IMG/VR virus record: IMGVR_UViG_3300011432_000001
Coordinates: 1 to 64,000 of that record
From: a virus
Strand: one strand, 5' to 3'
Length of the DNA stretch: 64,000 nucleotides
Below the pieces are notes generated by a model, which was not told the DNA's origin, did not search any database, and saw only the letters and a program-made list of their open reading frames with translations. Below are positions 3,032 to 22,663 of the stretch, piece by piece. The position numbers were made by a program, and so were the translations under genes. The stretch's first letter is position 1; every line of letters begins with the position of its first letter.

Positions 3032-3366
3032 GATTTATTGGTTAGATCGCAATAACTCCAAAAGCTCAGCAACCCCTATAATATCGACTAAGTTACGGAG
3101 TCATGACCGTGGCCGAATGCGATAGGGAATTCATGACTCCTTATATTCCACATGTGGTATTTGCCTAATGGGAATGAAGGGGGTTGCTGCTTAATGGTTG
3201 ATTCTAGATAAACTGGTGTGGGACTGCACCTTGATTCCGGGCTAGCCACGGATAAAGGACCTAACACCAAATGATGCTGGCCGACGAGCTAGAGCTGTTG
3301 GGGGATTGGGGAATATTCTAGACCCTATAAGAACCGCGACGCATTTGAAGAGAAAAGGACGGGATT

Positions 3367-4097: not shown

Positions 4098-4291
4098 TGG
4101 TTAAACACATAGATGGCGTTATCTATGGTGACGTTGTTTATGACGAAAGAGGAGATAGATATTATTTCCTGTGTGAGTGGTGCGAAACTGGTATTCACGG
4201 AGGACCCAATAGTGAGAGCTTTGTTATCATCAAAGCAGACCAGCACGAACAAGAATGCACGGCCAAACCAAATAATAAAACGGACACGTAG
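4094..4291 (+). CDS. hypothetical small Cys/His protein
   Basis: RBS ggatagaggaagtATGATG; CEWCE..H motif. Confidence 0.5.
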   Translation: MMVKHIDGVIYGDVVYDERGDRYYFLCEWCETGIHGGPNSESFVIIKADQHEQECTAKPNNKTDT

Positions 4292-8729: not shown

Positions 8730-9023
8730 ATGACGTACAAGGTGGATAGATCCTTGGGAGGAATTTATTCTAGTCAACTATCTACACAAGATGTAAAGTC
8801 GTCACCTATGTTAAGAGGAAGAGCCAAGGGTGGCCCAAAAGATAACATTATCCTTGAAGCATCATATTCTTGGGATGGTATTGTCAATCACTATATAGAA
8901 TCCAGAAGGACTAAAATTTATGGTCCTTATCCTGGTAGATATACTTGGAATGGTAAGACATGGGTATGGAGAGAGGATGAGGATGGCAATAAACTCAATA
9001 AAGAAGCCCAAGATCAGAGTTAA
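8730..9023 (+). CDS. hypothetical protein
   Basis: RBS aaaggaggaaatATG. Confidence 0.5.
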   Translation: MTYKVDRSLGGIYSSQLSTQDVKSSPMLRGRAKGGPKDNIILEASYSWDGIVNHYIESRRTKIYGPYPGRYTWNGKTWVWREDEDGNKLNKEAQDQS

Positions 9024-9082
9024 AACAACTCTTGAGTGGATTCACAATGAGATAGTACTTATCGCTCAAGACATGGCCAAGC

Positions 9083-9784
9083 TTGCAGAATTCATTGCTC
9101 AGAAAAAGAGTAAGAATGGCTGATTGGCGAAATAAAATAGAAGGATTATTTGCCAAATCCATGGCTAAGGGCACCACACCTGAAGAACGTGATGCCCTAC
9201 AAGATAAAGCCATATACCTTATGACCAAATACGGCGTAGAAGAAGCTACCTTGAGGAAGAAAGACGGTAGCATTGAGAAGCCTATCATTGTCAAGATGTC
9301 TATTGGCAATCCGTACGCAATGAGGAAAGCACAACTTCTTGGCTCAATTGCGCACTTTCTTGGTGGCAAGGCTGTAGGTAGTGGTTATGCAGGCTCAGTT
9401 GTAATCAATTTGTTAGGGTTCTCAGAAGACATAGAGAGAATCAAGATTCTATATTCAAGCTTGACCGCCCAGCTACACATGGACTTGTACTCCTTAAAGA
9501 TTCCACAATCTGAGAATGCAAAAGCATATAGGAACGCTTTCATGGTCGGCTTTGGTGTCACGGTTACAAATCGTTTGGAAAAAATATACAATTCGGTAAG
9601 CGCAATCCCTGGCACAGATATTGTCCTCAGGGATAGGAAAGACGTCATTGAAGATCTGTCCAAGGAAGCTTTTCCAAATTTGAAAAAAGCAAACGCCATC
9701 CAGCTCAGCTCACAACAGGGCTGGGATGCGGGCGTGACCAGCGGAAACAAGGCTGATCTTGGCCAGGATAGACTTGACAGCTAA
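9083..9784 (+). CDS. hypothetical protein (probable start at 9116, aaaagagtaagaATG)
   Basis: 233-aa ORF. Confidence 0.55.
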   Translation: MQNSLLRKRVRMADWRNKIEGLFAKSMAKGTTPEERDALQDKAIYLMTKYGVEEATLRKKDGSIEKPIIVKMSIGNPYAMRKAQLLGSIAHFLGGKAVGSGYAGSVVINLLGFSEDIERIKILYSSLTAQLHMDLYSLKIPQSENAKAYRNAFMVGFGVTVTNRLEKIYNSVSAIPGTDIVLRDRKDVIEDLSKEAFPNLKKANAIQLSSQQGWDAGVTSGNKADLGQDRLDS

Positions 9785-9875
9785 TCACTTGACACTGCTG
9801 TCATCGGGTGTGTAGGGTTGGCTTCGCACCCAGGTACCGGCCACGGGCTGGACTCCAGAAGGTGAGAAACGGACA

Positions 9876-10247
9876 ATGAACGATAGAGATAAAGTCGTTG
9901 ACGTAAGTGAGGAATTCCAAAGGCTACATAATGCTTGGATGATTCACATATACGAACATGAGAATGGCGCAAACGTGCATCTTCACGCGCCACCAGCGGT
10001 AGTGTTGGCAGCCTCTAAAATTTTCGAATCTTCGATGGTCGATGATGATGAGTCATTCGATGTTTCTGACTGGGACACACCGTGCATGACAACGCCAAGA
10101 GATATAATCGAGTACGGAACCAAGCTGTTCGAGTTTGGACAACGCACTGCAATGGCTGGGATTTTTGCAGCTAACATGACACCGTGCAGATGCACAGAAA
10201 TAACGGACGAAGACATAGCCAAACTGATGGGTGACAAACATGATTGA
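9876..10247 (+). CDS. hypothetical protein
   Basis: RBS aaggtgagaaacggacaATG. Confidence 0.5.
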   Translation: MNDRDKVVDVSEEFQRLHNAWMIHIYEHENGANVHLHAPPAVVLAASKIFESSMVDDDESFDVSDWDTPCMTTPRDIIEYGTKLFEFGQRTAMAGIFAANMTPCRCTEITDEDIAKLMGDKHD

Positions 10248-10413
10248 GGATGGCTGGGAGCAAGTTGGACCCATCGAGGTTCACACTACGGATGGAATCG
10301 TTAGCGTTCGTGCAGCAAGCGATAAACTTGGTGACGAACTCGTTCTAGATCGATCCGAATGGACAGAGCTAGTTCGTCTGGCCAAAGAGGGAAGCCTAGA
10401 TCATATCTAATAG
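10240..10413 (+). CDS. small ORF (57 aa, MIEDGWEQVGPIEVHTTDG..), translationally coupled (ATGA overlap)
   Basis: Read from sequence; below the ORF-track size cutoff. Confidence 0.3.
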
Positions 10414-10600
10414 GTAGGAATCCTGCTAGTGCTAATGCCTCCATCCCCCCGGATCCTAAGCACAAGTGGTCACCACAGGGCAGGTATGTCTGTAGGGGTT
10501 AGGCAGACAATAAATGTCGTCCCATGCTAGTCTTGGGAGTAGCATGGTACGATGGGATAACCAGTACGGTATCGATGTAGAGGTATTGGTTATCCACAAC

Positions 10601-10671
10601 GCGGGGTAGCTTAACAGCAGAGCACTAGGCTCATAACCTGGAAGATGTGGGTGCAAATCCCATTCCCGCCA
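10601..10671 (+). tRNA. tRNA-Met (CAT) or tRNA-Ile (lysidine)
   Basis: Good D-arm (GCTT/AACAGCA/GAGC), perfect anticodon arm CTAGG-CTCATAA-CCTGG, T-arm GTGGG-TGCAAAT-CCCAT; the acceptor stem has one register irregularity. Confidence 0.5.
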
Positions 10672-10699
10672 CGAAAGAAATGCCGTGTCACTGCGGACT

Positions 10700-12150
10700 G
10701 GTCAACGTTCTAGACTGAATAAGAATCGGTTATCTTATTGGAAGAGAACTTTTCCGATTCTAAATCACACGTTTGGAACCCAAAACGTGATGGCGTATGG
10801 TATCTAGGGAGATCCTAGAACGAAACTCGCGTAAGAGGGTGCATGAAACAAAGCCATCACATCTAAAGCTTGCTGCTGAGCCCGCCGCGAGAAAAGTGTT
10901 AAACTGAATGAGTTCGTTTATCTTGATGGTTCAACTCCACCTATCTCCTTGGGAGATATCGCCTAATTGGTTAGGGCGTAGACGAACACAACAAACATGT
11001 TTGACACTCACAGGAGGTGAAGAAATGGGCGAGGGCTGGATTGTTGTCTGGTAAATAGACGTAGTACTGGACTGATAGTAATTGGTTATCTGGAACAAAG
11101 GGTCGCAGGTTCGAGTCCTGCTCAGCTGAATTCCGGCTGGTAGCTTAGTTGGCAGAGCATTTGTATGCCGAAAGGCTCTCCGATTACATCCCATGTTCGG
11201 TACTTTAATTTGGGTGAGACGGTCTCTTTCAAGTGTGACTATATGGTTTCGAATAGCTCCGTGGTGCGTGCCAACTATCCGAAATGAGTGAGTAGAAACT
11301 GATGTCATACTTGCCGTCTCACCCATGCTAAGCAAGATTGTGGACTGAATAGTATTGGTTATCGGCATTGTATATTCCAATACTGACTCACATGTTCGCA
11401 AGCAAAAGCCTGTCGGGGGTCGATAGGGAAAGTGAAAAAGTATCAGACTGAATGTTGATTGGTTATCAACTGCAAATTGAAAGCCGAGGTAAGTCGGCTA
11501 AGTTCCGATCGACTATCACATGTTTGATACCAAGTGGCTATGGTGCAATGGCAGCACAACAGACTTCCACTCTGTTAATCTGGGTTCGAGTCCCAGTGGC
11601 CGCTCTTTGGGTGGTTGTCTCAATAAGTCCCGGCGTCTAGTAGTGTGGTTTAGCTGGGTTGCGAGACAATCAATTCAGGCTAGCGAAAGCTACCGTACTA
11701 CACTACAACGGAAAGCGGCTGGACCTGTAAGGTGAGTGGAATACTAGTTAGAAACTCACCTCCCATTAAATTTAATATTGTGGACTGATGTGAATTGGTG
11801 ATCGACCGTCAACGTCATATTGTCTAGAGGTAAGTGCCTTATTCCTACTAGCAGATCCGATTTACACTCACATGTTCGCAATAACAAAGTGTCGGGCGAG
11901 GAACGGTCAGGTAACCGTCACCTGACTCGCCTGGCTCCAACTTAACAATTGTAGACTGAATTGAAATCGGTTATCTTGCCAGAAAGCTGCGGAACTAAGA
12001 GCCCGCAACCATTCCCTATAAAGGAGTGTCCCGATTTCTTCAACATGTTTGCAATCTAAAATATCACCCTTTTGGGATGGGTTGTTGGACTGATATTCAT
12101 TGGTTATCATTCCCTCTTGACGAATAAAATATCCGATGAAGTTTCCATGT
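10700..12150 (+). repeat. array of 8 dispersed copies of a conserved structured element: RGACTGAW-N8-YGGTTATC (A), then a covarying 8-9 bp hairpin, then CACATGTTYGMAA (B)
   Basis: A-boxes at 10711, 10901, 11069, 11341, 11444, 11781, 11952 and 12085. The 3' stem arms covary: AGAATCGG/CCGATTCT, AGTATTGG/CCAATACT, GAAATCGG/CCGATTTC, GTGAATTGG/CCGATTTAC, GTTGATTGG/CCGATCGAC, TTCATTGG/CCGATGAA. There are no credible ORFs across the island. Confidence 0.6.
11534..11604 (+). tRNA. tRNA-Gly (TCC)
   Basis: Full cloverleaf: acceptor GTGGCTA/TGGCCGC (2 GU pairs), D GTGC-AATGGCA-GCAC, anticodon arm ACAGA-CTTCCAC-TCTGT, T arm CTGGG-TTCGAGT-CCCAG. Confidence 0.7.
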
Positions 12151-12171
12151 TCGACACACTAAAAGGGGTCA

Positions 12172-12375
12172 ATGATGCAAGAAGTAACAATTCTTTACGG
12201 CGTTGACGGTGTTGTGAAGAAGAAAAAGATTAAAGCTACAAAGATTACTGCTCAAATGGACGTTGACGGCACAAATGTGAACGCATCCGCAGATGGAACA
12301 GATGAAGATGGACCAATAATCTGGGTCCTCTTCAAAGATGCATATATTCTAGAACTACGTCCTGTAAAGGATTAA
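12172..12375 (+). CDS. hypothetical protein (Lys-rich)
   Basis: RBS aaaaggggtcaatgATG immediately downstream of repeat unit 8. Confidence 0.5.
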   Translation: MMQEVTILYGVDGVVKKKKIKATKITAQMDVDGTNVNASADGTDEDGPIIWVLFKDAYILELRPVKD

Positions 12376-12609
12376 GCTCCAGCCTGCGTAACCTCACAAA
12401 TTGTAAGGTGACTCTTCGACAGTCTAACTTGCATACGTGATTGGTGGCTACAGCCCGTGAGGTAGTTACGGCAATATCGGGTGCTCAACTCCAAGGGTGC
12501 GACAGCCTAAGGATATGGTGGAAGTTGTGGAGGATTCCTCTGTCGCGCTAAATACGGTACAATAAAAGCTTACGGCAGCAGAGTTTGATCGCCATTAGAG
12601 AGGCATATC

Positions 12610-13740
12610 ATGAGACTCGACCGTAGGCATTGGACAGCCCTCGTAGCAGGATTGGCCACAATCGTAATTGGCTTTTCAACAAGTACAACGTCGGTAGGTA
12701 ATTCTGTCGAGACGATAGACGACCAAGCCGTGATGTATAGGGCTTGCACTAGTCGTCTCGGCGAAACACAAAAGCCAATGACCCCAGAGGTTTTGGCATT
12801 TTTGCGTAATTGTGAAGAGGCTTTTGCGCCAAGTTCACCACCAAGTGAAAGTCCATCTGCATCTCCCACAAGTAGTCCTCCCACAAGTAGTCCTTCTGCA
12901 AGCCCTTCTGTAAGTCCTTCTGTAAGTCCTAGTGTGTCACCAACACCAAGCCCAACCCTGCCAACAGCGGAGTGCCCTCCGCTACCAGCATTTCCTGATG
13001 AGAATTGTACAGGTTACAGGCATACTGGCGTAACATTGACATCGTGTCCAAGGCAATTGAATGTTGCAAACGCTACATATGACTCCTGTCGTTTCGATGG
13101 TAGTATTACCATTGCTGCGGATAACATCAAAATCACACGTTCGCTAGTGAACGGCGGAGTTGTCAACAGCGTAAACGGAAACAACCAAATGCGTGGATTG
13201 CAGTTGACTGATGTGGAAATTCTCGGCGCAACAGGGACAGATCAGCTAGCTGCGATTGGAACTGAAAATTATACTTGTATTAGGTGTCACATTCACAAAA
13301 CGTATAGAGGTTTTGCACTCGGGAATAACGTTAGGATAATAGATTCATATTCACATGATTTCAGACGTCAACCCGAAGCACACCAGACAGCAGCTAGTAC
13401 TCACGGTGGATCCAATGTTTTCATTGATCACTCAAGACTACGTTGTGAGAGTGACAAATACGCCTGTTCAAACGGCATATCTTTCTACGCAGCAAACTCT
13501 AATATCAACAATGTGACAATTCAGAACAGTCACATTTCGACCGACGCCGGATATGGAATCGGATTCTTTTATCTGAACCCTGGTAATGGAAAACCTTACA
13601 ACGTATTCAACACTAAGATTCTGAACAACGTGTTCGGCTCTTGGGAATATGGTATGCGCGCCAATTGGATGGGTACTCGGGACGGTAACGTTTGGTCTGG
13701 TAATACACAAGAACCATTCGATCCTGTTTGTAGATGTTAA
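12610..13740 (+). CDS. secreted protein with a Ser/Pro/Thr-rich linker and a C-terminal right-handed beta-helix-like (pectate-lyase-like) domain
   Basis: Signal peptide MRLDRRHWTALVAGLATIVIG; linker SPSASPTSSPPTSSPSASPSVSPSVSPSVSPTPSPT; repeated NVxIxNSHI / NVRIIDSYSHDF beta-helix-like turns. Confidence 0.55.
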   Translation: MRLDRRHWTALVAGLATIVIGFSTSTTSVGNSVETIDDQAVMYRACTSRLGETQKPMTPEVLAFLRNCEEAFAPSSPPSESPSASPTSSPPTSSPSASPSVSPSVSPSVSPTPSPTLPTAECPPLPAFPDENCTGYRHTGVTLTSCPRQLNVANATYDSCRFDGSITIAADNIKITRSLVNGGVVNSVNGNNQMRGLQLTDVEILGATGTDQLAAIGTENYTCIRCHIHKTYRGFALGNNVRIIDSYSHDFRRQPEAHQTAASTHGGSNVFIDHSRLRCESDKYACSNGISFYAANSNINNVTIQNSHISTDAGYGIGFFYLNPGNGKPYNVFNTKILNNVFGSWEYGMRANWMGTRDGNVWSGNTQEPFDPVCRC

Positions 13741-13809
13741 TTTCCCCTCTCATCATATGAGTAGCCTGGGGATTGTAAGGCTGACAGGAACGCCTATTCC
13801 TGTCAGCAT

Positions 13810-13884
13810 CTAGGTATAGCTCAGCTTGGTTAGAGCACTGCGTTTGGGACGCAGAAGCCGCAAGTTCGAATCTTGCTACCTAGA
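13810..13884 (+). tRNA. tRNA-Pro (TGG)
   Basis: Perfect cloverleaf: acceptor CTAGGTA/TACCTAG (C1-G72 as in bacterial tRNA-Pro), D GCTC-AGCTTGGTTA-GAGC, anticodon arm CTGCG-TTTGGGA-CGCAG, T arm GCAAG-TTCGAAT-CTTGC. Confidence 0.8.
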
Positions 13885-13988
13885 CGATACACAAAGACTC
13901 CCCTTTGAGCGGGCGGAGAATGGGGCAACACTTGACGCCAATTGAGTGTTGTCCCAACCATGTTTCCTACGGAGACTAAAGGAGCAAA

Positions 13989-15623
13989 ATGTCAGACTAT
14001 CTTACTCGTCATGTAACTCGTGACATTCCTCAGACTGAGAAGGAAAACCCGTTGCAGATAGCAAACTCTGCTGGTGGTTTCTCTTTCGAAGTTGATAAGT
14101 GGAAGCGACTTGAGCGATTCCTTATTCTTGGTTCCGAAGGTGGTACTTACTACATCGGTGAAAAGGACCTGACTAAGGAAAATCTCGACAACCTACGCAA
14201 CCTTACGCAGGAAGATGGCAAAGAGGTTGTAGCCCTGGCTGCGAACGTCTCAACTTTCGGTCGTTCTTACAAGAACAATGCTGCTATCTTCGTTTTGGCT
14301 TTTGTCATGACACATGGTAGCGATGAAGTTAAGTCGTTTGCTCGTGGCATGGTGGATCAGATTGTGCGTACTTCTACACATCTGTTCACGTTCGAGAAGT
14401 TCTTGAAGGCACTAGCTCCTGGTACGGGTTTGGGAACCTCCCGAAACCGCGCCATCGCTGCGTGGTATGAGGGGAAGACGACTGAGCAGCTTGCTTACCA
14501 GGCTGTGAAATACCGGCAGCGCGAGGGATGGACGCATCGCGATTCAATGCGTCAGTCGCGTCCAAAGGGTATTGACCCTGCCCTAGGTAATTGGATTCTA
14601 GGTAAAAACGATGGGCAGGCTTTTGATGTTCCACAGATCGTTCAAGCATTCGAGATCGCTCAAAAGGTAGGTAACGTCAAGGAACTTTTGAACACACTTG
14701 AGGTTTACACAAACCTTCCTTGGGAAGCCCTTCCAACTCAATTTCTCAAGAACGCCGAGGTATGGAAGAAGCTTTTCTACAATGGGCAGCTCAATGGTCA
14801 GGCGTTGGTGCGAAACATCACTCGCTTGGCTCGGCTTGGAGCGTTCGAAGATCTTGTGTTCGCACACGACTACGCTGCCAAGCTCACCGACACTGAGATG
14901 ATCCTCAAAACCAAGCTGCATCCTATCAACTACTTGAATGCTGTTACGGTTCACGTAGAAGGACAGGTTCAACGGCGTGGTGACGGTGGAGGGTATGGTT
15001 ATTATGGTCACGGTGGACGCAATAGGGATTGGACTACTTCTTCAATCATCGTTGATGCATTGAATGCTGGATTCCATTTGGCTTTTGTCAACGCTGTGCC
15101 ATCCAACAAGCGCACCTTGCTAGCCTTGGACGTCAGTGGTTCAATGAGTTCGGCAATGGCACTTGGTCTGGACCTAACGGCTGCTCAAGTAACAGGCGCG
15201 ATGGCCACTACCATTGCCAAGGTCGAGCCGTACCATCGGATTATGGGATTCGCAAGCGAGTTTCGTGATTTGGGTATTTCAGCGAACATGTCCTTGTCAG
15301 AGGTAACCAAGCGAGTTCAAGATATGAACTTTGGAACTACGGATTGTGCTTTGCCAATGACTTGGGCAATGCAAAACAAGTACGAGTACGACACGTTCAT
15401 TGTCATGACTGACAATGAAACTTATCGAGGTTCTGTGCACCCGCACATGGCTTTGCAGAAGTACCGTCAAGCAACGGGGATCAATGCGAAGTTGATTGTC
15501 GTTGGCGTAGCAGCTAACGATTTCACTATTGCAGATCCCAATGACGTTGGCATGTTGGATGTGGTCGGTGCGGACAGTAACTTGCCAAAGCTGATAACGG
15601 AATTCAGTAAGGGAAATCTTTAA
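13989..15623 (+). CDS. rsr: Ro60 orthologue (Rsr): TROVE domain plus C-terminal von Willebrand A domain
   Basis: 544 aa; N-terminal TROVE-like region; C-terminal vWA with MIDAS LALDVSGSMSS; RBS aaaggagcaaaATG. Confidence 0.75.
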   Translation: MSDYLTRHVTRDIPQTEKENPLQIANSAGGFSFEVDKWKRLERFLILGSEGGTYYIGEKDLTKENLDNLRNLTQEDGKEVVALAANVSTFGRSYKNNAAIFVLAFVMTHGSDEVKSFARGMVDQIVRTSTHLFTFEKFLKALAPGTGLGTSRNRAIAAWYEGKTTEQLAYQAVKYRQREGWTHRDSMRQSRPKGIDPALGNWILGKNDGQAFDVPQIVQAFEIAQKVGNVKELLNTLEVYTNLPWEALPTQFLKNAEVWKKLFYNGQLNGQALVRNITRLARLGAFEDLVFAHDYAAKLTDTEMILKTKLHPINYLNAVTVHVEGQVQRRGDGGGYGYYGHGGRNRDWTTSSIIVDALNAGFHLAFVNAVPSNKRTLLALDVSGSMSSAMALGLDLTAAQVTGAMATTIAKVEPYHRIMGFASEFRDLGISANMSLSEVTKRVQDMNFGTTDCALPMTWAMQNKYEYDTFIVMTDNETYRGSVHPHMALQKYRQATGINAKLIVVGVAANDFTIADPNDVGMLDVVGADSNLPKLITEFSKGNL

Positions 15624-15629
15624 TATGTC

Positions 15630-15902
15630 GTGAGCCTCGCTCCTAACGAGGTCCAGTTCATCGTTTGGCAGTTGTCGATGACGACAAAACAACTGCCACT
15701 TAAGGTGGTGAAAATGGACAGGTTGGCAATGATTATAGGATTTCTAATTGGCGATGTAATAGTTCAGCTATTAGGTATTGTCTTACTACTACGTGGTGCC
15801 ACTGCCGATGAGCGTGCAGATATATTGGATGCCATTGACGGATTGCCGTTCATTTCCTGGCCTTGGACTGTAAAACTCGTAAGACATTGGAATGAAGAAT
15901 AG
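15630..15902 (+). CDS. small membrane protein (likely start at 15715, aaggtggtgaaaATG)
   Basis: TM segment MIIGFLIGDVIVQLLGIVLLL; hairpins CCTCG/CGAGG and GGCAGTTGT/ACAACTGCC lie between the rsr stop and this start. Confidence 0.4.
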   Translation: MSLAPNEVQFIVWQLSMTTKQLPLKVVKMDRLAMIIGFLIGDVIVQLLGIVLLLRGATADERADILDAIDGLPFISWPWTVKLVRHWNEE

Positions 15903-16367
15903 ACTTGGGGAATGTCAGTAGAGTGTTGCTTCGGCCTACACTTCGGCTGCCACAAGGCTCAAGACCTTGGTTCCCACTAGTCGCGTTTTGTTGAAGTCTT
16001 ATCGCGACGAACGAAATGAAGAATAGAGACGTAAGAGAATTACGGACGGCATGGAGTCGTCAGGGATGGCATGTCAGGAACTTGATTTCCTTGAACACTT
16101 CATTTCTAAATAGCTCCTGGCATCTTGAGAAGGGTCGCCTGGGAAGTGGGAGTTCTGGTTTACTTTGGTCAGCTAGCCGAAACTCCCACACTTGCGCATG
16201 TTGGTTCGTAGGTGAAATTCCTACCACTGTCACTAGTGTCATAGGCTGCCAGCAAACTTGCTAGATCTTCGACGTCGAAGCATAGAATCTGGCTAAGCTA
16301 GCAGACAGAGATGGGTTCGATTCCCGTCTTGCGCACGTATGGATTGATAATAAAATAAGAGGGAATT

Positions 16368-16751
16368 ATGACTAAAGCAATAGCAACGTTATCTGTGTTT
16401 GCTGCCTTCTTTGTGTTGGTGGCGTGTGGTACTAAAACTAATTCTGATGCACAACCTACGCAATCTGATTTTCCTATAGTAATTGCTGTTCAACCAACAC
16501 ACGATCCAAAGCGTCTTAGCGATGGTGTATGGAAAGTTGGCTTGGAGATTGAACCTGGAACATATACGACAATTGTTCCTAATAACACTCCTGGTTGCTA
16601 TTGGGGAAGACTAAAGAATTTTCTGAATGAAAAGAGTAGCGTCATTGCTCAAGGATTGCTCATTCAAGGTGCCAGGGGTAGAGTCACCATAAAGGCATCA
16701 GATGTAGGAGTAGAATTCACCGGCGAATGCGTATGGGAGAAAGAAAGTTAG
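16368..16751 (+). CDS. lipoprotein (signal peptide with lipobox LVAC)
   Basis: MTKAIATLSVFAAFFVLVAC-GTK; RBS aagagggaattATG. Confidence 0.55.
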   Translation: MTKAIATLSVFAAFFVLVACGTKTNSDAQPTQSDFPIVIAVQPTHDPKRLSDGVWKVGLEIEPGTYTTIVPNNTPGCYWGRLKNFLNEKSSVIAQGLLIQGARGRVTIKASDVGVEFTGECVWEKES

Positions 16752-16796
16752 TCTTCGAACGGTGAGTGCCGTTCGAGTAATAAGAAGGAGTACACA

Positions 16797-16910
16797 ATGC
16801 AGGACAATTCTCCAGTTGAGAACGAGGAAGTTCCAACTGAGACTGTGGTTCCGAGCGAAATGCCGGAGTCTCAGGTTGTGGACGACGATACGGCTCCAAC
16901 CGAGGAGTAA
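16797..16910 (+). CDS. small highly acidic ORF (37 aa)
   Basis: Very strong RBS aagaaggagtacacaATG; below the track cutoff. Confidence 0.35.
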   Translation: MQDNSPVENEEVPTETVVPSEMPESQVVDDDTAPTEE

Positions 16911-16939
16911 TTAGCTTCGGTCATATAGTGGACCGATAA

Positions 16940-17204
16940 GTGAAACAGAGAGTAGAATGCAGAGAGCAGAGAGATTCTGCAACGTGGACTGGGTGCATGA
17001 GCGGCCACTGATCACTCTGTTTCACGAAAATAACCACGGGATCATCGGGTCTGTGAATGATAGATAAGTGCGAAGTACAAGCAGGATAATCTAAGCGGTT
17101 CCCGACCGGTATGCGCGAGGTTCGAATCCTCAGGTCCCGACGAATAGGCAACGAGTTTCCAGTCTGCATGCTGTACTCGTGGGGCTGCCTATTTTAGGAA
17201 GGCA
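16940..17204 (+). ncRNA. candidate small structured RNA (tRNA-like T-arm module, possibly Y-RNA/YrlA-like) ending in a terminator
   Basis: 11-bp stem GTGAAACAGAGAG / CTCTGTTTCAC (16940-17024); canonical T-arm GAGG-TTCGAAT-CCTC plus AGGTCCC (17125-17147); hairpin AATAGGCAACGAG..CTCGTGGGGCTGCCTATTTT (17150-17204); no ORF. Confidence 0.3.
17150..17204 (+). terminator. Rho-independent terminator
   Basis: 13-bp interrupted stem followed by TATTTT. Confidence 0.5.
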
Positions 17205-17273
17205 TGGCAAGGAAGCCATATCCGGCTCGCATACGCCCGAGTCATGCCTTCCTCAAACTAAGGAGAAAAACGG

Positions 17274-17510
17274 ATGCCAAAGTTCAAAGTACCAATGGTA
17301 AAGACTATTACTGCTTATGTGAACGTCGAAGCAGACAATGAAGACCAAGCGTATGAAAAGGCACTTGATAATGCACCCGAGATTTGTGCCATTTGTACTG
17401 GATGGGGAAGTGACTCCTGGTCTGTTGATGCTGATGCCGACTGGGAGGAATCTGATGGCGAAGGCATTGAGGAGATTGGTGCAGACGAAGAAGTAGTGAA
17501 CGAAAATTAA
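17274..17510 (+). CDS. hypothetical acidic protein with a CxxC motif
   Basis: RBS aaggagaaaaacggATG. Confidence 0.5.
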   Translation: MPKFKVPMVKTITAYVNVEADNEDQAYEKALDNAPEICAICTGWGSDSWSVDADADWEESDGEGIEEIGADEEVVNEN

Positions 17511-17524
17511 TTTAAGGATATGCT

Positions 17525-17770
17525 ATGGTCGCAGTAGAGCAGAATAACAATGCCGCTGCCACAGCTGTAGTTGTCATATCCACATTGATCACCTGCGGAC
17601 TGATGATTCCAGTGTGGCTATTTGTGGGCTTAATTATTATAATAGTAAAAATATTTAGTCCAGAACCTAAGAAACCAAAACCAGTATACATTCCTCCAAG
17701 TAACGACTTCGCCTCCGATTGGGAATACGAAATAATAGAATGGAATGAAGATGGGACACGCATCTGTTAG
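17525..17770 (+). CDS. small membrane protein
   Basis: Long hydrophobic stretch. Confidence 0.4.
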   Translation: MVAVEQNNNAAATAVVVISTLITCGLMIPVWLFVGLIIIIVKIFSPEPKKPKPVYIPPSNDFASDWEYEIIEWNEDGTRIC

Positions 17771-18101
17771 GCCAAGGATTAGAGAATTCTTCGAACGCAA
17801 TCCTGGTGTGACTCTATGGAGAAAGGACTTCATGGAGTACATTGAACGTGACTTGGGAAGAGCATGTACAGTGAGCGGCCTTCTCAATGCCATCAGTGAA
17901 CTTATCAAAACTGGATATCCTATCGAAGTTGAGGAACGTGGACATTCGTGGCGTTACGTTCCTAACAAGAAACAAGAAATCGTGGCACTTCCCAGAACCA
18001 ACAGGAAAATGTTTGAGTTATTGGCAAATACCAAAAGTGGTGCGATGATTCTCGAGGACACCGAAGGTGAAGTCGTGATCGTCAAGGTTGTAGATCTGTG
18101 A
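17745..18101 (+). CDS. hypothetical protein
   Basis: ORF. Confidence 0.5.
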   Translation: MKMGHASVRPRIREFFERNPGVTLWRKDFMEYIERDLGRACTVSGLLNAISELIKTGYPIEVEERGHSWRYVPNKKQEIVALPRTNRKMFELLANTKSGAMILEDTEGEVVIVKVVDL

Positions 18102-18175
18102 TCAAGCGACCGTTGACACGTCTGTCAGGGGCGAGGTATTGTTGGGTGCAGCGGCCGGACAGGTTGCTGCACCTT

Positions 18176-18230
18176 CCTTATATCACTGGTGTGAAGCTCA
18201 ATGACTTCGGTTCGATTCCGAATATAAGGA
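18176..18230 (+). other. tRNA 3'-half-like element (7-bp acceptor CCTTATA/TATAAGG plus T-arm TTCGG-TTCGATT-CCGAA); candidate attP core or tRNA-like module
   Basis: Only 55 nt, too short for a tRNA; canonical T-loop; lies 160 nt upstream of an excisionase-family gene. Confidence 0.3.
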
Positions 18231-18390
18231 CGAGTTGATGGTGGGAACAATTGTACTCCTAATACAATGCAGGAATGTTCCGGTGAGCTTTTCTGTTCTT
18301 CGGCTCGCTTGTAAGGTTTAGTCCGTTTACCTGTAGGCTTGAGACGCGAATAACCATCATCACTCTCATTCAAGTGAGAAAGGAAAAGTA

Positions 18391-18690
18391 ATGGGTCAAA
18401 TAGATACAGATGATCTTTTTCCTGCTGATCTACAACCTGAAGAGGTAGCACTAAGGAAAGAGATTTTACTACCAACAAGACCCAGTCTTAAGGATGAATA
18501 CAATCCAGAGGACTGGATGACCACCAGGGAAGTTTCTGAATTCTTCCGCGTCGATCCAAAGACCGTGAAGCGTTGGCAGACAGAGGGTAAGTTGGATGAG
18601 GTGAAAACTTTCGTGACTCCAGGGGGTCACCACCGATTCTCTCGCCCTGACATTAAGAAGATAGTGGAATCACATGAAAACGGTCGCTGA
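18391..18690 (+). CDS. excisionase-family / MerR-like HTH DNA-binding protein
   Basis: TTREVSEFFRVDPKTVKRWQTEGKL..PGGHHRF matches the Xis-type winged HTH; RBS gagaaaggaaaagtaATG. Confidence 0.5.
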   Translation: MGQIDTDDLFPADLQPEEVALRKEILLPTRPSLKDEYNPEDWMTTREVSEFFRVDPKTVKRWQTEGKLDEVKTFVTPGGHHRFSRPDIKKIVESHENGR

Positions 18691-18946
18691 CGATGAGCTT
18701 TTCACGGACATCGATGAGAATGACCAACGCCTAAAGACGACCATTGAGACTTGGGTCGAAGGTAAGAAAAAACTGAAAGAAGGACATCGCGAAGAATTAG
18801 ATGAGTATGAAGGAAGAATGTTCGCTTTTCTTTGGAGATGCCGACCCATATTGTCAACAGCTACACTGTCTAGACTGGTAGGTATGTCTAGACAAACTCT
18901 CTATGAGAAGTGGCAGAAGCATGGTTTTGACGTTAATGAAATCTGA
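18674..18946 (+). CDS. HTH-containing small regulator
   Basis: LSRLVGMSRQTLYEKWQKHG helix-turn-helix. Confidence 0.4.
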   Translation: MKTVADDELFTDIDENDQRLKTTIETWVEGKKKLKEGHREELDEYEGRMFAFLWRCRPILSTATLSRLVGMSRQTLYEKWQKHGFDVNEI

Positions 18947-19136
18947 GGAAGATAGACAGGAGTTAAAAAGTAACTTCTGTCATTGGGTGTGGATAGATGA
19001 TCCTGATGAATCCTTATGTGGAAAGGATATGTCCAACCATAACTGGGTGAGCGACGAAGTAGCTGTTGACTGTCCAGAATGTTTGTGGACAGAAGAATTC
19101 CTAGAACAAATTGAAAATAACCTTGGTGGAGAATAA
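18903..19136 (+). CDS. Zn-ribbon small protein
   Basis: C..C ... CPEC motif. Confidence 0.4.
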   Translation: MRSGRSMVLTLMKSEEDRQELKSNFCHWVWIDDPDESLCGKDMSNHNWVSDEVAVDCPECLWTEEFLEQIENNLGGE

Positions 19137-19452
19137 GATGTCCGACTCTACTTTAGAAGAAGCAAGAAGGTGCCCTGCTTGTAACGAACCTGGATTGGCC
19201 AATGGAACTAGACCAGCCCCAGAACGTTGGCAGGGCACCTTACATCTTTTCAAATGCGTAAATCAACGTTGCCTAAAGGTTGATCGTACTTGGATTGTAC
19301 AGATCAGACCTGATGGAACTATTCCAGAAGCGACATTGAATAGAGAAAAGAACTACCCAATGGTAGAAGGAATGCCCACGCGAGAACGAATCAACAGAGC
19401 TAGAGCATCAGTTGATGATAACGTTCGACAGCAACGAGCGAAAAATGCATAG
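19111..19452 (+). CDS. Zn-ribbon protein (probable start at 19138)
   Basis: CPACN ... CVNQRC. Confidence 0.45.
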   Translation: MKITLVENKMSDSTLEEARRCPACNEPGLANGTRPAPERWQGTLHLFKCVNQRCLKVDRTWIVQIRPDGTIPEATLNREKNYPMVEGMPTRERINRARASVDDNVRQQRAKNA

Positions 19453-19645
19453 AGCCAATCCTCCCATGGGAGAAGTAAGACGGCCGTGCGTATTCTGTAA
19501 TGATACAGTATTACAGGTACATGGAAAACTTGCCACTAACAGGGTGACTCGTAAGACTGGAATGGCATGTCAGCATTGTTGGGAGCAGGATCAAATTGAA
19601 CGGGCCAACAATACCACATCTGTACATGCCTCAGCGCGCGATTGA
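19412..19645 (+). CDS. Zn-finger small protein
   Basis: CVFC ... CQHC. Confidence 0.35.
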   Translation: MMITFDSNERKMHRANPPMGEVRRPCVFCNDTVLQVHGKLATNRVTRKTGMACQHCWEQDQIERANNTTSVHASARD

Positions 19646-19829
19646 AAAAATAGCAGCAGAATATAACATGTCGATAGACGATGTAAAACAAATATGTATG
19701 GTGCGCTCCTACGAAACATCTGATGAACGTAATAAAAGAATTCAGATAGAAGAAATAACGAACAGAATCAACAGACGCCTCCGTGGTGAGTATGTTTCGC
19801 CAGCGTGGATTGCGAGCTTTAGGAGGTGA
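19596..19829 (+). CDS. hypothetical protein
   Basis: ORF. Confidence 0.4.
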   Translation: MNGPTIPHLYMPQRAIEKIAAEYNMSIDDVKQICMVRSYETSDERNKRIQIEEITNRINRRLRGEYVSPAWIASFRR

Positions 19830-19832
19830 CAC

Positions 19833-21311
19833 ATGGAACTATTTGCATTTCAAAGAGAAACGGTAGAGAAACTAAAAGAACAACGCGGCGTACTTATTGC
19901 ACACGACATGGGCTTAGGAAAAACGGTCACAGCTATAGCTCTAGACGGTGTCAGGCGATCTCGATTTGATAAACCTGCCAAGACTTTAATTATTTGTCCT
20001 CTAGGCGCTATTGATGTTTGGGTCAAGCACTATGCTGCTTGGGCACCACGCCTTAGAGTGGTAGCGATTGACAATAAGAACCGCAAGCCATTTATGGAAG
20101 TCATGGAGCGCTCCTTTAAGGATCCTCTTGGACTTGGTTATGACGTGTTCATCATGCACTACCCTGCGATCAGGCTTGAGAAGGATGTCGCTCGCTTCCC
20201 TTGGTTTCACGTCGTATGCGACGAAGTGCATGCATTGCAGGATCGTAAATCTGCACAGAGTAAGGCAGTCAAGCTGATTCCAGCGTTCTATAAGACTGGT
20301 CTGTCCGGCACTCCGGTATTCAACAAGCCTGATGACCTATGGTCTATCCTCAATTGGCTGTACCCAAAATACTGGAAAAGCTATTGGAGCTATTTCAAGA
20401 GGTATATCAAATGGGTTGAGTATGATGGCTATAGGACCGTCATTGGAGTTAACAATGAAGAAGAGTTACAAGCTCAGATCGCTGGGTTCTATAGTAGAAT
20501 AATGAAAAGGGCAGTCCTTAAGGATCTACCCGACAAATACTTTAGCGTTCACCAAGCTAAGATGCATCCATTGCAGACTAAAGCATACAAACAAATGAAG
20601 AAAGAAATGCTTGCATGGGTTGGAGAGCACGAAGATCAACCAATTAATGCATCCGTGGTGCTGGCGCAACTTACCAGGTTGCAACAGTTCGCCTCTGCCT
20701 ACGCAGAGATTGAACATTTCGAGGTAAAAGTTAAGGTGTACGTCAAGGAACGTGATAGGCCAGAGCTTAGAGAACAAGGTATTGAGGTTTTCCAAGCAGA
20801 CGATGACAGTTGGTACTACTATACAATGGAACCACGTACCAGGGTCCGTCTTTCTGAGCCTAGCAACAAGCTCGATGATGTGATGGAAATTATCAACTCC
20901 ACGGATGAGCAGATAATAGTATTCTCACAGTTCTCACAGATGATGCAACTATTAGCAAAGAGACTAGAAAAGGCTGGCATACCACACGGTCTTTACATAG
21001 GTGCTACCTCTAAGGCCGACCGTGATAAGATTGTAGAAGAATTTCAAGCTGGTAAGCTTAAGGTGTTCTGTGGAAGTATCAAGGCCGGAGGCATGAGTAT
21101 CACGCTAACAGCGTCATCAACAGTTGTCATCACTAATCGTGAATGGGCACAGTCTCTAAATGATCAGGCGATTGACCGTGCAGATAGACTTGGACAGAAG
21201 AATGCGGTACACGTAATTGATGTAATATCTGAGAGTACCATAGATACAGAGCGAAATCTAGGAATTGAAATGAACTGGAACGTAATTAAACGGATGTTAG
21301 GAGAATTGTAA
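19833..21311 (+). CDS. SNF2-family DNA helicase/translocase
   Basis: RBS aggaggtgacacATG; motif II VVCDEVHALQD; LSGTPVFNKPDDLWSILNWL; C-terminal helicase motifs FSQFSQMM..QAIDRADRLGQKNAVHV. Confidence 0.8.
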   Translation: MELFAFQRETVEKLKEQRGVLIAHDMGLGKTVTAIALDGVRRSRFDKPAKTLIICPLGAIDVWVKHYAAWAPRLRVVAIDNKNRKPFMEVMERSFKDPLGLGYDVFIMHYPAIRLEKDVARFPWFHVVCDEVHALQDRKSAQSKAVKLIPAFYKTGLSGTPVFNKPDDLWSILNWLYPKYWKSYWSYFKRYIKWVEYDGYRTVIGVNNEEELQAQIAGFYSRIMKRAVLKDLPDKYFSVHQAKMHPLQTKAYKQMKKEMLAWVGEHEDQPINASVVLAQLTRLQQFASAYAEIEHFEVKVKVYVKERDRPELREQGIEVFQADDDSWYYYTMEPRTRVRLSEPSNKLDDVMEIINSTDEQIIVFSQFSQMMQLLAKRLEKAGIPHGLYIGATSKADRDKIVEEFQAGKLKVFCGSIKAGGMSITLTASSTVVITNREWAQSLNDQAIDRADRLGQKNAVHVIDVISESTIDTERNLGIEMNWNVIKRMLGEL

Positions 21312-22207: not shown

Positions 22208-22663
22208 ATGTTCGATTCAGATATCAGCAACGAACTTCGTGATGAACTCGTTGCAAGTCTCAAAAAGGTGTATGACAATGAGATGGACAACCTCTATTCA
22301 ATACTGGACGAAGTCATAGGCTATGTAAAGGTCTACACTAACATAGGAAGGCCCGATTCTAAGGCAGTGCTTATGCTTTACAACAGCTTTGTTAAGAAGG
22401 ATATAGAGAATCTTGCATTGTTGATGGCGGCACTCATTCTTCGGGAAGCGAAGAGTCAATTGGAGCAGGAGAAAGCCCAAAAAGAAAGCCCTGCCCCATC
22501 TGCGACGGACTCTACGGAATCGTCTGTGAAGGATGACACTGTCCAAGGGTCTACTGAAGGGCCAACTCTTGAGTCAATTAAAAAGGGCGCAACTGTCCAT
22601 ACTGATGTATACCTTCCACACATTGCTGTCGACGGTAACCCAACTGTAAACGAATGGAAATGA
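22208..22663 (+). CDS. hypothetical protein
   Basis: ORF. Confidence 0.5.
   Translation: MFDSDISNELRDELVASLKKVYDNEMDNLYSILDEVIGYVKVYTNIGRPDSKAVLMLYNSFVKKDIENLALLMAALILREAKSQLEQEKAQKESPAPSATDSTESSVKDDTVQGSTEGPTLESIKKGATVHTDVYLPHIAVDGNPTVNEWK

Follow-up and report, generated by a model that had tools for sequence, protein, structure and literature searches.

We analysed a stretch of 64,000 nucleotides of viral DNA (positions 1 to 64,000 of IMG/VR record IMGVR_UViG_3300011432_000001, hereafter the window), in which rsr, a gene for the RNA-binding protein Ro60, is accompanied by structured RNA elements on both sides. Ro60 is conserved from bacteria to humans, and the roles of its different Y RNAs are largely a puzzle. 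The locus comprises the Ro60 gene, eight covarying RNA units, one of which is a YrlA-like tRNA mimic, and three conserved tRNA-derived RNAs. The window belongs to a tailed phage, with replication genes (SNF2 helicase, Prim-Pol and family A DNA polymerase) on the + strand and portal, terminase, tube and tail genes on the - strand; contigs related to this phage are 72-82 kb long. The Ro60 locus occupies the + strand region upstream of the replication genes, and rsr, the RNA elements, the hairpins and the promoters described below are all on the + strand.

rsr (13989-15623) encodes a protein of 544 aa, composed of an N-terminal TROVE ring and a C-terminal vWA domain with the MIDAS motif DVSGS. 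Pfam detects TROVE at 1.5e-30 and vWA_Ro60 at 5.5e-62, and the PDB matches (2NVO, 6.6e-87; 1YVP, 3.6e-83; 9NEN, 1.6e-80) cover residues 12-543, the protein being aligned end to end with Deinococcus radiodurans Rsr (2NVO) and with frog and human Ro60. These results confirm the Ro60/Rsr gene proposed by a first-pass annotation of this DNA, which was centred on the region from 13810 to 17204 and had predicted a Y-RNA locus downstream of rsr.

That a phage Ro60 gene can have a YrlA RNA nearby has been on record since 2014, for 22 phages (Chen et al., 2014, PMC4201824). Among cultured phages, a Ro-like protein is carried by 357 phage records, and the nearest kin of the 544-aa protein are Streptomyces phage 'Ro-like RNA binding proteins' of about 52% identity; at the DNA level, a BLAST search against the cultured phages of INPHARED, in near and distant modes, gives no match for the region. 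A protein search found Ro60 relatives of 60-78% identity, and the subsequent contig look-up gave twelve syntenic loci, which are those of ten of these relatives (loci are designated below by L and a number). Ro60-based scans of IMG/VR and of JGI metagenomes yielded one 54% relative and otherwise near-identical fragments only. RNA-repair partners (RtcB, kinase, CCA-adding enzyme) are encoded by none of the 20 large open reading frames (ORFs) of the window that were checked.

The RNA island starts with tRNA-Met(CAU) (10600-10672; Rfam tRNA, 54.9 bits). A second tRNA gene, tRNA-Gly(UCC) (11534-11605; 62.9 bits), is located inside the array described below, and both positions are kept in the relatives. 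tRNA-Pro(UGG) (13810-13885; 68 bits) precedes rsr, as already annotated at first pass. ARAGORN calls all three, and Rfam at gathering thresholds finds these three tRNAs and nothing else. In all the relatives' loci that reach far enough upstream, the same order is observed: DUF2786 gene, tRNA-Met, array, tRNA-Pro, rsr.

A tandem array of Y-RNA-like units upstream of rsr

YrlA RNAs consist of a terminal stem with the motif GNCGAA, a T arm, an acceptor-like hairpin, a D arm and a closing 3' strand. Their genes share the strand of rsr and are no more than 4 kb away from it (Chen et al., 2014, PMC4201824). In Mycobacterium smegmatis, YrlA and YrlB derive from one precursor upstream of rsr and are both bound by Rsr; two Rsr-bound Y RNAs are thus described in this species, two in Salmonella and at least two in D. 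radiodurans (PMC4201824).

When T loops with a D arm on their 3' side were sought, a single site was obtained in the window, at 11109-11158. Mycobacteriophage Bxz1, Streptomyces phage Sham and a metagenomic relative show this arrangement too, likewise upstream of Ro. The site of the window belongs to the third of eight hairpin-type units, which follow each other in an ORF-poor stretch of 1.45 kb (10707-12157). The units lie 1.8-3.3 kb upstream of rsr, hence within about 4 kb of it, on the same strand, and those of the relatives are arranged likewise. The whole array is outside the span considered at first pass and had escaped attention. No convincing ORF is present in 10680-12170; a 156-aa minus-strand ORF across units 2-4 was considered and rejected as a gene, as it has no Pfam family, is unlike the minus-strand ORF of L009 and is without counterpart in the relatives.

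All units follow one sequence pattern, with GACUGA, 5-8 nt and YGGUUAUC on the 5' side and CAYGUUY 27-100 nt further on, on the 3' side. Their 9-bp closing stem, in which the inner four pairs join (G/A/U)GAC to GUU(C/U/A), opens on a conserved internal loop (GAC|UGAAU, with UGAAU on the 5' side and ..ACAY on the 3' side); beyond it come a second stem ending in YGG/CCG, then UUAUC, and finally a variable apical part.

R1, a covariance model of the unit core, recovers seven of the eight units at full score in the window, finds unit 3 weakly (11 bits) because of its long insert, and finds nothing else; these scores are partly obtained by construction, since the window units are in the training set. 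Unit 1 (10707-10779; R1, 56.5 bits; fold z = -3.3) is a short form with the 9-bp closing stem GTTCTAGAC/GTTTGGAAC, and unit 4 (11337-11402; 52.4 bits; fold z = -2.7) is a minimal form made of two stems and a small loop. Unit 2 (10896-11007; 44.8 bits) carries an apical degenerate T arm, a hairpin and a D-arm-like hairpin; this apical domain is kept in L008, L009, L014 and L015, and its T stem co-varies, GAUGG/CCACC versus AAAAG/CUUUU. The apical fold of unit 6 (11777-11882; 47.6 bits), kept in L007, L008 and L012, is a type of its own that is conserved between genomes, and unit 7 (11948-12055; 55.7 bits) has an apical motif, AACAUUCCCUnUAAAGGAnUGUC, kept in L011, L012 and L013. Units 5 (11440-11530; 52.9 bits) and 8 (12082-12157; 47.7 bits) complete the set. 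The units are therefore not interchangeable copies, as the apical modules of units 2, 6 and 7 are kept by type between genomes.

Unit 3 (11064-11203; fold z = -2.6) is the YrlA-like tRNA mimic. Within the stem formed by its 5' and 3' ends, it contains a T arm (11105-11121), an acceptor-like hairpin extending to 11139 and a D arm (11140-11158); the T arm reads GCAGG-UUCGAGU-CCUGC and is followed, after the hairpin, by UAGCUUAGUUGGCAGAGC, the whole being enclosed by stems 1 and 2. ARAGORN does not call unit 3 as a tRNA. The Rfam YrlA model (RF02553) matches it at 11079-11189, over the full model (positions 1-114), with 42.1 bits and an E value of 1.9e-7. Unit 3 is missed by the default Rfam search because this score is below the curated cut-off, and the match appeared in E-value mode. 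The arrays of L007, L008, L012 and L014 each contain at least one sub-threshold YrlA match as well, of 36-39 bits. The first-pass idea that the locus encodes Y-type RNAs with tRNA-like modules thus finds its support upstream of rsr, in the array and in the YrlA match of unit 3.

Pairing was assessed on the aligned cores of 44 units, taken from 8 genomes; the near-identical contig L002 differs too little from the window to be of use in a structure test. Paired cells reach 97%, versus 78% for shuffled units and 22-44% when the partner strand is slid, a percentage that is inflated because the 3' ends of the units were first picked by at least 8 of 9 complementary positions. The ACAYG and CCGA blocks, next to the 3' ends of the units and at a fixed distance from them, are outside that selection. 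Compensatory changes are observed in 10 of the 16 pairs, with a covariation score of 0.56 versus 0.19.

In 11 related loci, R1 gives 53 matches, among them units outside the training set and one Bxz1 unit; without exception, the matches precede rsr and are on its strand. Downstream of rsr, it finds nothing in the window or in these loci; with filters off over 9000-20000, nothing outside the array is better than an E value of 0.85. A loose pattern of the 5' Y motif, which gave 112 stretches, provided a negative control. Loci were retrieved for 80 of these stretches, amounting to 735 kb of unrelated viral DNA, and R1 has matches there in two contigs only, both of which carry arrays. Taking R1 and YrlA matches together, the related loci that reach far enough upstream have six to nine units each, upstream of Ro60, and Bxz1 has three units with the same 5' and 3' motifs just upstream of its Ro gene. 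Bxz1 belongs to the Ro-encoding mycobacteriophages, which were searched for YrlA by Chen et al. (2014, PMC4201824).

It could be argued that the units are a repeat of another nature, for instance a REP-like repeat, target sites of a DNA-binding protein, or terminators or attenuators that separate the tRNA genes: they are repeated and interspersed with tRNA genes, the literal GNCGAA motif is missing from them, and their link to Ro60 is predicted. This is nevertheless highly improbable. The covariation points to selection on RNA pairing and not on DNA sequence, and there are no U tracts after the stems of the units. Furthermore, all of them are on the rsr strand, Rfam identifies one as a YrlA homologue, and their module recurs in the Y RNAs beside Ro in Bxz1. 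In every fetched locus, the units are upstream of rsr, all but two of these loci having been fetched for encoding Ro60.

The module shared by the units is homologous to that of YrlA/YrlB-type RNAs. The inner end of the closing stem and the UGAAU/ACAY loop occupy the position of the Ro-binding GNCGAA helix of YrlA and YrlB, and the UUAUC of the units corresponds to the YUAY of YrlA. In the distant Ro60 phages L003 and L005 (Sham), which have five or six units, the 5' motif is GGGUCG(A/G)A, a sequence that agrees with the published motif for part of the units, and the 3' motif is AUAUCC; at those positions, the clade of the window has GGACUGA and CAUGUUC. As the 3' partner changes in step with the 5' motif, the motif of the window is, in our reading, a compensated variant of the GNCGAA site, at a homologous position, and not a literal match.

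Additional structures were noticed in the array. Within it, at 10787-10860, there is a hairpin element with the conserved interior UCUAGGGAGAUCCUAGAA ... CAUGAAACAAAG, a copy of which is present in L008 (11375-11455), downstream of rsr and with a tRNA-like element on either side. This hairpin would seem to be a further RNA module repeated in the island. The gaps between the units (11204-11336, 11606-11776 and 11883-11947) contain more long hairpins, such as the one in which GGGTGAGACGG at 11211 pairs with CCGTCTCACCC at 11313; the Y-unit model does not recognise these hairpins. The first of these gaps is reduced to about 25 nt in L007. Finally, in the record of Sham (L005, ON645339.1), a 62-nt 'tRNA-Ser(cga)' annotated at 4141-4202 overlaps the 5' half of a Y-like unit (4131-4265), and neither its five Y-like units nor its T-arm/D-arm module (3107-3157) bears an annotation. 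Cultured Ro60 phages thus probably carry unannotated Y-RNA arrays.

tRNA-derived RNAs downstream of rsr

On the + strand of the window, there are five copies of the T-arm consensus GTTCGAWTC, versus 0.9 expected: in tRNA-Pro, at a coding start at 22210, and at three intergenic sites (16315, 17120 and 18210). At each of these three sites, the strand that follows the T arm pairs with a partner located 55-144 nt upstream, so that the strands succeed each other as in a tRNA, from the 5' acceptor strand through the interior and the T arm to the 3' acceptor strand. We call these elements A, B and C. Both T-arm signatures reported at first pass, at 16.3 and 17.1 kb, exist, the second being about 8 nt upstream of where it had been placed; the third T-arm element, at 18176-18230, had not been reported.

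Element A (16193-16336) is a 144-nt tRNA-derived RNA with a 6-bp acceptor-like stem, a GG connector to which the D arm has shrunk, and a T arm (ATGGG-TTCGATT-CCCGT at 16311-16327, then TGCGCA). Its 5-bp arm bears a 7-nt loop, UGAAAUU, with a G at the place of U33; this loop is nearly invariant (UGAAAUU/C in 7 of 8 genomes). An arm of about 90 nt with three helices and the invariant GUGUCAUAGGCUG is located where the variable arm would be, and the parts foreign to tRNA, GUGUCAUAGGCUG and CUAAGC, are invariant or nearly so. RNAalifold predicts 40 pairs, 21 of them with compensatory changes. R2, a model made from element A, finds one copy per genome in 8 genomes, with 125-173 bits, just upstream of an Rv1352-like lipoprotein gene wherever that gene is annotated; as its weaker matches are genuine tRNAs, element A derives from a tRNA. 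Its identification as a transfer-messenger RNA (tmRNA) was considered and rejected, since it has no G3-U70 pair, no ARAGORN call and no Rfam tmRNA match.

Element B (17037-17140) is a 104-nt tRNA-like RNA with a 7-bp acceptor stem (CGGGAUC/GGUCCCG), a non-tRNA interior and the T arm CGAGG-TTCGAAT-CCTCA at 17116-17132 (with a closing C-A mismatch), after which comes GGTCCCG at 17133-17139. Element B and its counterpart in L008 (11459-11563) have 90% identity, versus 73% for the rsr genes of the two genomes, and one pair of the acceptor stem changes from A-U to G-C between the two genomes. Element C (18176-18230), in the leader of an HTH_17 gene, is reduced to a 55-nt tRNA 'top half', in which a 23-nt GG-containing connector links the 7-bp acceptor stem (CCUUAUA/UAUAAGG) to a T arm that is perfect. 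It is present in five genomes (the window, L007, L008, L012 and L017), with three acceptor pairs compensated in L012, and absent from the same leader in L014, L015, L018 and L019.

None of the three elements has a cloverleaf scoring as a tRNA: there is no ARAGORN call and no Rfam tRNA match at E<=10, in line with the absence of a complete cloverleaf noted at first pass for the segments of A and B. The Rfam mascRNA and viral tRNA-like models give no match to A, B or C either. Over 13700-17400, Rfam at E<=10 returns tRNA-Pro and noise only, without YrlA, Y_RNA or tRNA match to A or B; over 17300-18500, the sole match to any of these models is partial and non-significant, that of element C to Deinococcus_Y_RNA (18.3 bits, E 2.8). 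Exact-pattern scans of IMG/VR with the conserved cores of A and B retrieve only the near-identical contig L002.

These data bear on the first-pass proposal that the downstream T-arm segments, at 16.3 and 17.1 kb, are themselves the Y RNAs of Ro60, of the YrlA type or of the type of Deinococcus Yrn1. They are indeed less than 4 kb from rsr and on its strand, they are conserved, they combine a T arm with a stem made by their two ends, and element C shows the weak match just mentioned. However, the Rfam YrlA and Y_RNA models, with which this stretch was to be checked, do not recognise them, and the match of element C is non-significant. A, B and C lack the stem/internal-loop module common to the eight units and to the Y RNAs of Bxz1, with R1 blank downstream of rsr in every genome, and their arms follow the order of a tRNA and not the order T arm, hairpin, D arm. 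Moreover, a clear YrlA homologue, unit 3, is found elsewhere in the locus. We consequently regard this proposal as unlikely. The likeness to D. radiodurans Yrn1 (RF01053) is one of general layout, with ends that pair, a T arm that abuts the 3' strand and the presence of some tRNA features only; in contrast to Yrn1, A, B and C have no recognisable Ro-binding motif, and C is the sole element to match its model, below significance.

The segments could also be tRNA pseudogenes decaying from a larger array, like those around Ro60 in Streptomyces and Mycobacterium phages, which was the fallback of the first-pass annotation. In relatives, Ro60 does lie inside a tRNA array, and L012 and L014 have genuine tRNAs at comparable positions; in addition, R2 matches real tRNAs at low score, and element C is missing from some homologous leaders. 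Against this stand the compensation of 21 of the 40 pairs of element A and its invariant non-tRNA motifs in 8 genomes, the identity of element B, higher than that of rsr, and the three compensated acceptor pairs of element C, features that would not be expected to survive neutral decay. The covariation and conservation of A, B and C are at least equal to those of the neighbouring genes and tRNAs. Given this conservation and the compensatory changes, the three elements are not decayed pseudogenes in our reading, and such a decay is very improbable.

All these results indicate that A, B and C are tRNA-derived RNAs, a class apart from Y RNAs, in which the tRNA top half is kept and the anticodon half is replaced by element-specific structure. 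The tRNA top half is what RNase P, RNase Z, the CCA-adding enzyme and TruB recognise. tRNA-like elements that are cut out like tRNAs are known in other systems: mascRNA from MALAT1, the tRNA-like 3' ends of plant viruses, and tRNA punctuation in mitochondria. Like them, the three elements have retained the acceptor stem and the T arm/elbow; they lie within apparent transcription units, directly before coding regions; unlike them, they are phage-encoded, have large element-specific inserts in place of the anticodon arm, and their processing is predicted.

The relatives contain more tRNA-like elements, in which acceptor stem and T arm are present but the anticodon arm is not, and which ARAGORN does not call (L007 11813-11889, the L008 11351 region, L009 12081-12156, L012 9084-9160 and L018 3098-3278). 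The window lacks a gene of 416-432 aa and the type of tRNA-like element that comes after it.

Predicted RNA partners of Ro60

The best explanation of the locus would be that the eight tandem units at 10707-12157 are the partner Y RNAs of Ro60 and that A, B and C form a separate, tRNA-derived class, a reading to which we attribute a probability of about 75%. Several points weigh against it. The paired percentage and the R1 scores of the window units are partly favoured by the way they were obtained, as mentioned above. None of units 1-8 has GNCGAA(N0-1)G at the Ro-binding site, where they read (G/A)GACUGA(A/U), and unit 3 does not reach the YrlA gathering score of 69. Half of the homologous leaders do not have element C, which is thus dispensable there, and the tRNA-like excision of A, B and C is predicted from their shape.

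The likeness to YrlA/YrlB (RF02553) concerns both location and structure: the units are upstream of rsr, on the same strand and less than 4 kb away, and they have the terminal stem, internal loop, second stem and YUAY motif; one of them has the T arm, hairpin and D arm of YrlA, adjoined by YrlB-like sisters, some with a T arm, and their common module is also that of the three units upstream of Ro in Bxz1. They differ from YrlA/YrlB by their number (eight, and six to nine in relatives), by their interleaving with tRNA genes, and by a 5' motif, GACUGAA, which replaces GNCGAA(N)G together with matching 3' changes; their Rfam score is below gathering and their binding to Ro60 is predicted. A second phage system is that of Thermus phage phiLo, whose Ro60 binds Yrl1 and Yrl2, encoded upstream, and complexes with host PNPase (PMC12135203); a phage complex of Ro60 and a Y-like RNA was solved in 2025. 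Both loci combine a phage Ro60 with upstream Y-like RNAs of stem-bulge-stem type, and a Ro60/Y RNA/host PNPase complex may be proposed for the window as well. In contrast to the two Y-like RNAs of phiLo, with their CGAA, the window has eight, with a variant motif, conserved apical modules and one tRNA mimic, for the time being known from their sequence.

In Deinococcus and in Salmonella, Ro60 is held to PNPase by a Y RNA (PMC4201824), and such tethering is also shown for Yrl1 and Yrl2 of phiLo (PMC12135203). By analogy, a long precursor would be cut into Y units together with the tRNAs, each unit could bind Ro60 via the shared stem and loop, as suggested by the literature, and the differing apical modules might gate Ro60 or tether it to different partners, for example host PNPase. 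Elements A, B and C might be excised like tRNAs, in which case the surrounding mRNAs would be cut at defined points and stable tRNA-like small RNAs would be freed.

A more ambitious possibility, for which we see an outside chance, is that of a modular adaptor set, in which one Ro60 would be connected by an identical stem and loop to eight clade-conserved apical modules, and through them to different partners or RNA classes, A, B and C being further clients or decoys. The modules would then direct host nucleases such as PNPase through Ro60, and A, B and C could be decoys for elbow-recognising host enzymes, for instance tRNA-targeting defence nucleases. The 64-kb window has three tRNA genes versus eleven Y-like or tRNA-like RNAs.

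Whichever mechanism is at work, the combination, in this phage clade, of one Ro60 and six to nine predicted Y RNAs with a common binding module and differing, conserved apical modules is a compact natural system in which the function of the variable part can be addressed. According to the authors of the original survey, short YrlB-type Y RNAs elude bioinformatic discovery (PMC4201824). Our analysis gives sequence and structure rules for finding them, in loci that the published motif and the Rfam cut-off miss, and adds three families of conserved tRNA-derived RNAs, recognised by no current model. Y RNAs that accompany a phage Ro60 have been described before. What appears to be new, relative to the papers compared here, is the array size, the interleaving with tRNAs, the variant motif, the conserved unit types and the three top-half RNAs.

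Hairpins, leaders and neighbouring genes

Two hairpins (15634-15652 and 15665-15699; fold z = -2.1), already noticed at first pass, lie between rsr and a small membrane-protein ORF (ATG at 15714), and no U tract follows them. A long hairpin with a 13-bp base is present at 16940-17025, where 16940-16952 pairs with 17013-17025, in agreement with the long-range stem reported earlier, and two conserved hairpins (17143-17253; fold z = -3.7) occupy the leader of a 78-aa ORF at 17274. The latter are kept in L007 and L008, and their outer stem co-varies (GGCA/UGCC versus GGUG/CACC). This region had been interpreted at first pass as a discrete small RNA gene of about 260 nt ended by a strong terminator. 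It rather consists of three separable modules, hairpin, element B and hairpin, which are recombined differently in relatives; in L012, the same long hairpin precedes a genuine tRNA-Thr. As for the terminator, the hairpin at 17143-17193 is real and conserved, but only two free U follow its stem, and the homologous stems are followed by CACCUAUCCAAAAA in L007 and CACCUAUUUAAAGG in L008, where the U tract is absent. The terminator scan calls neither hairpin of 17143-17253, and a GC-rich hairpin with a conserved U tract, as in an intrinsic terminator, is thus not what is found.

The near-identical contig L002 (99.3% identical to the window) lacks 16959-16965, 7 nt (GCAGAGA) that are one copy of a short tandem repeat in the apex of the long hairpin. 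Between the two contigs, there are twelve differences in the last 160 nt of rsr and zero in element A and its flanks (15857-16752).

Directly before element C, there is a sigma-70-like promoter at 18113-18142 (TTGACA, 18 nt, TATTGT; 10 of 12 consensus positions), whose -35 box and TAnnnT -10 box are found at unchanged spacing in nine relatives. A candidate promoter 5' of the tRNA/Y-RNA island (9789-9818; TTGACAC-N3-TGTCA ... TAGGGT) has in common with it the extended TTGACACnnnTGTCA signature; it is a pattern match of low confidence, as the number of such matches, taken alone, is not above chance.

The HTH_17/MerR-like gene that follows element C (18391-18690) has a long 5' leader with the conserved blocks CUGUUCUUCGGCUCGC, GUCCGUUU and GCGAAUAAC (18231-18390). 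Homologous leaders are found in L007, L008, L012, L014, L015, L017, L018 and L019, and the blocks are kept even in the most distant relatives. Rfam gives no match in 18231-18390, and this leader may be an unrecognised cis-regulatory RNA.

Between tRNA-Pro and rsr, three relatives have an additional tRNA called by ARAGORN (L008 5733-5804, L009 5664-5735 and L011 6692-6763; Rfam tRNA, 52.5 bits for the L008 copy), with a UUA anticodon that would read the stop codon UAA. The window does not have this tRNA, and an 11-bp hairpin is found in its place (13885-13988). Finally, a 376-aa ORF (12610-13740) lies between the array and tRNA-Pro. It belongs to no Pfam family. Its product is hydrophobic in an N-terminal segment and contains a long linker rich in Ser and Pro (SPSASPSVSPSVSPS), similar to the linkers of actinobacterial secreted proteins, a possible hint to the host.

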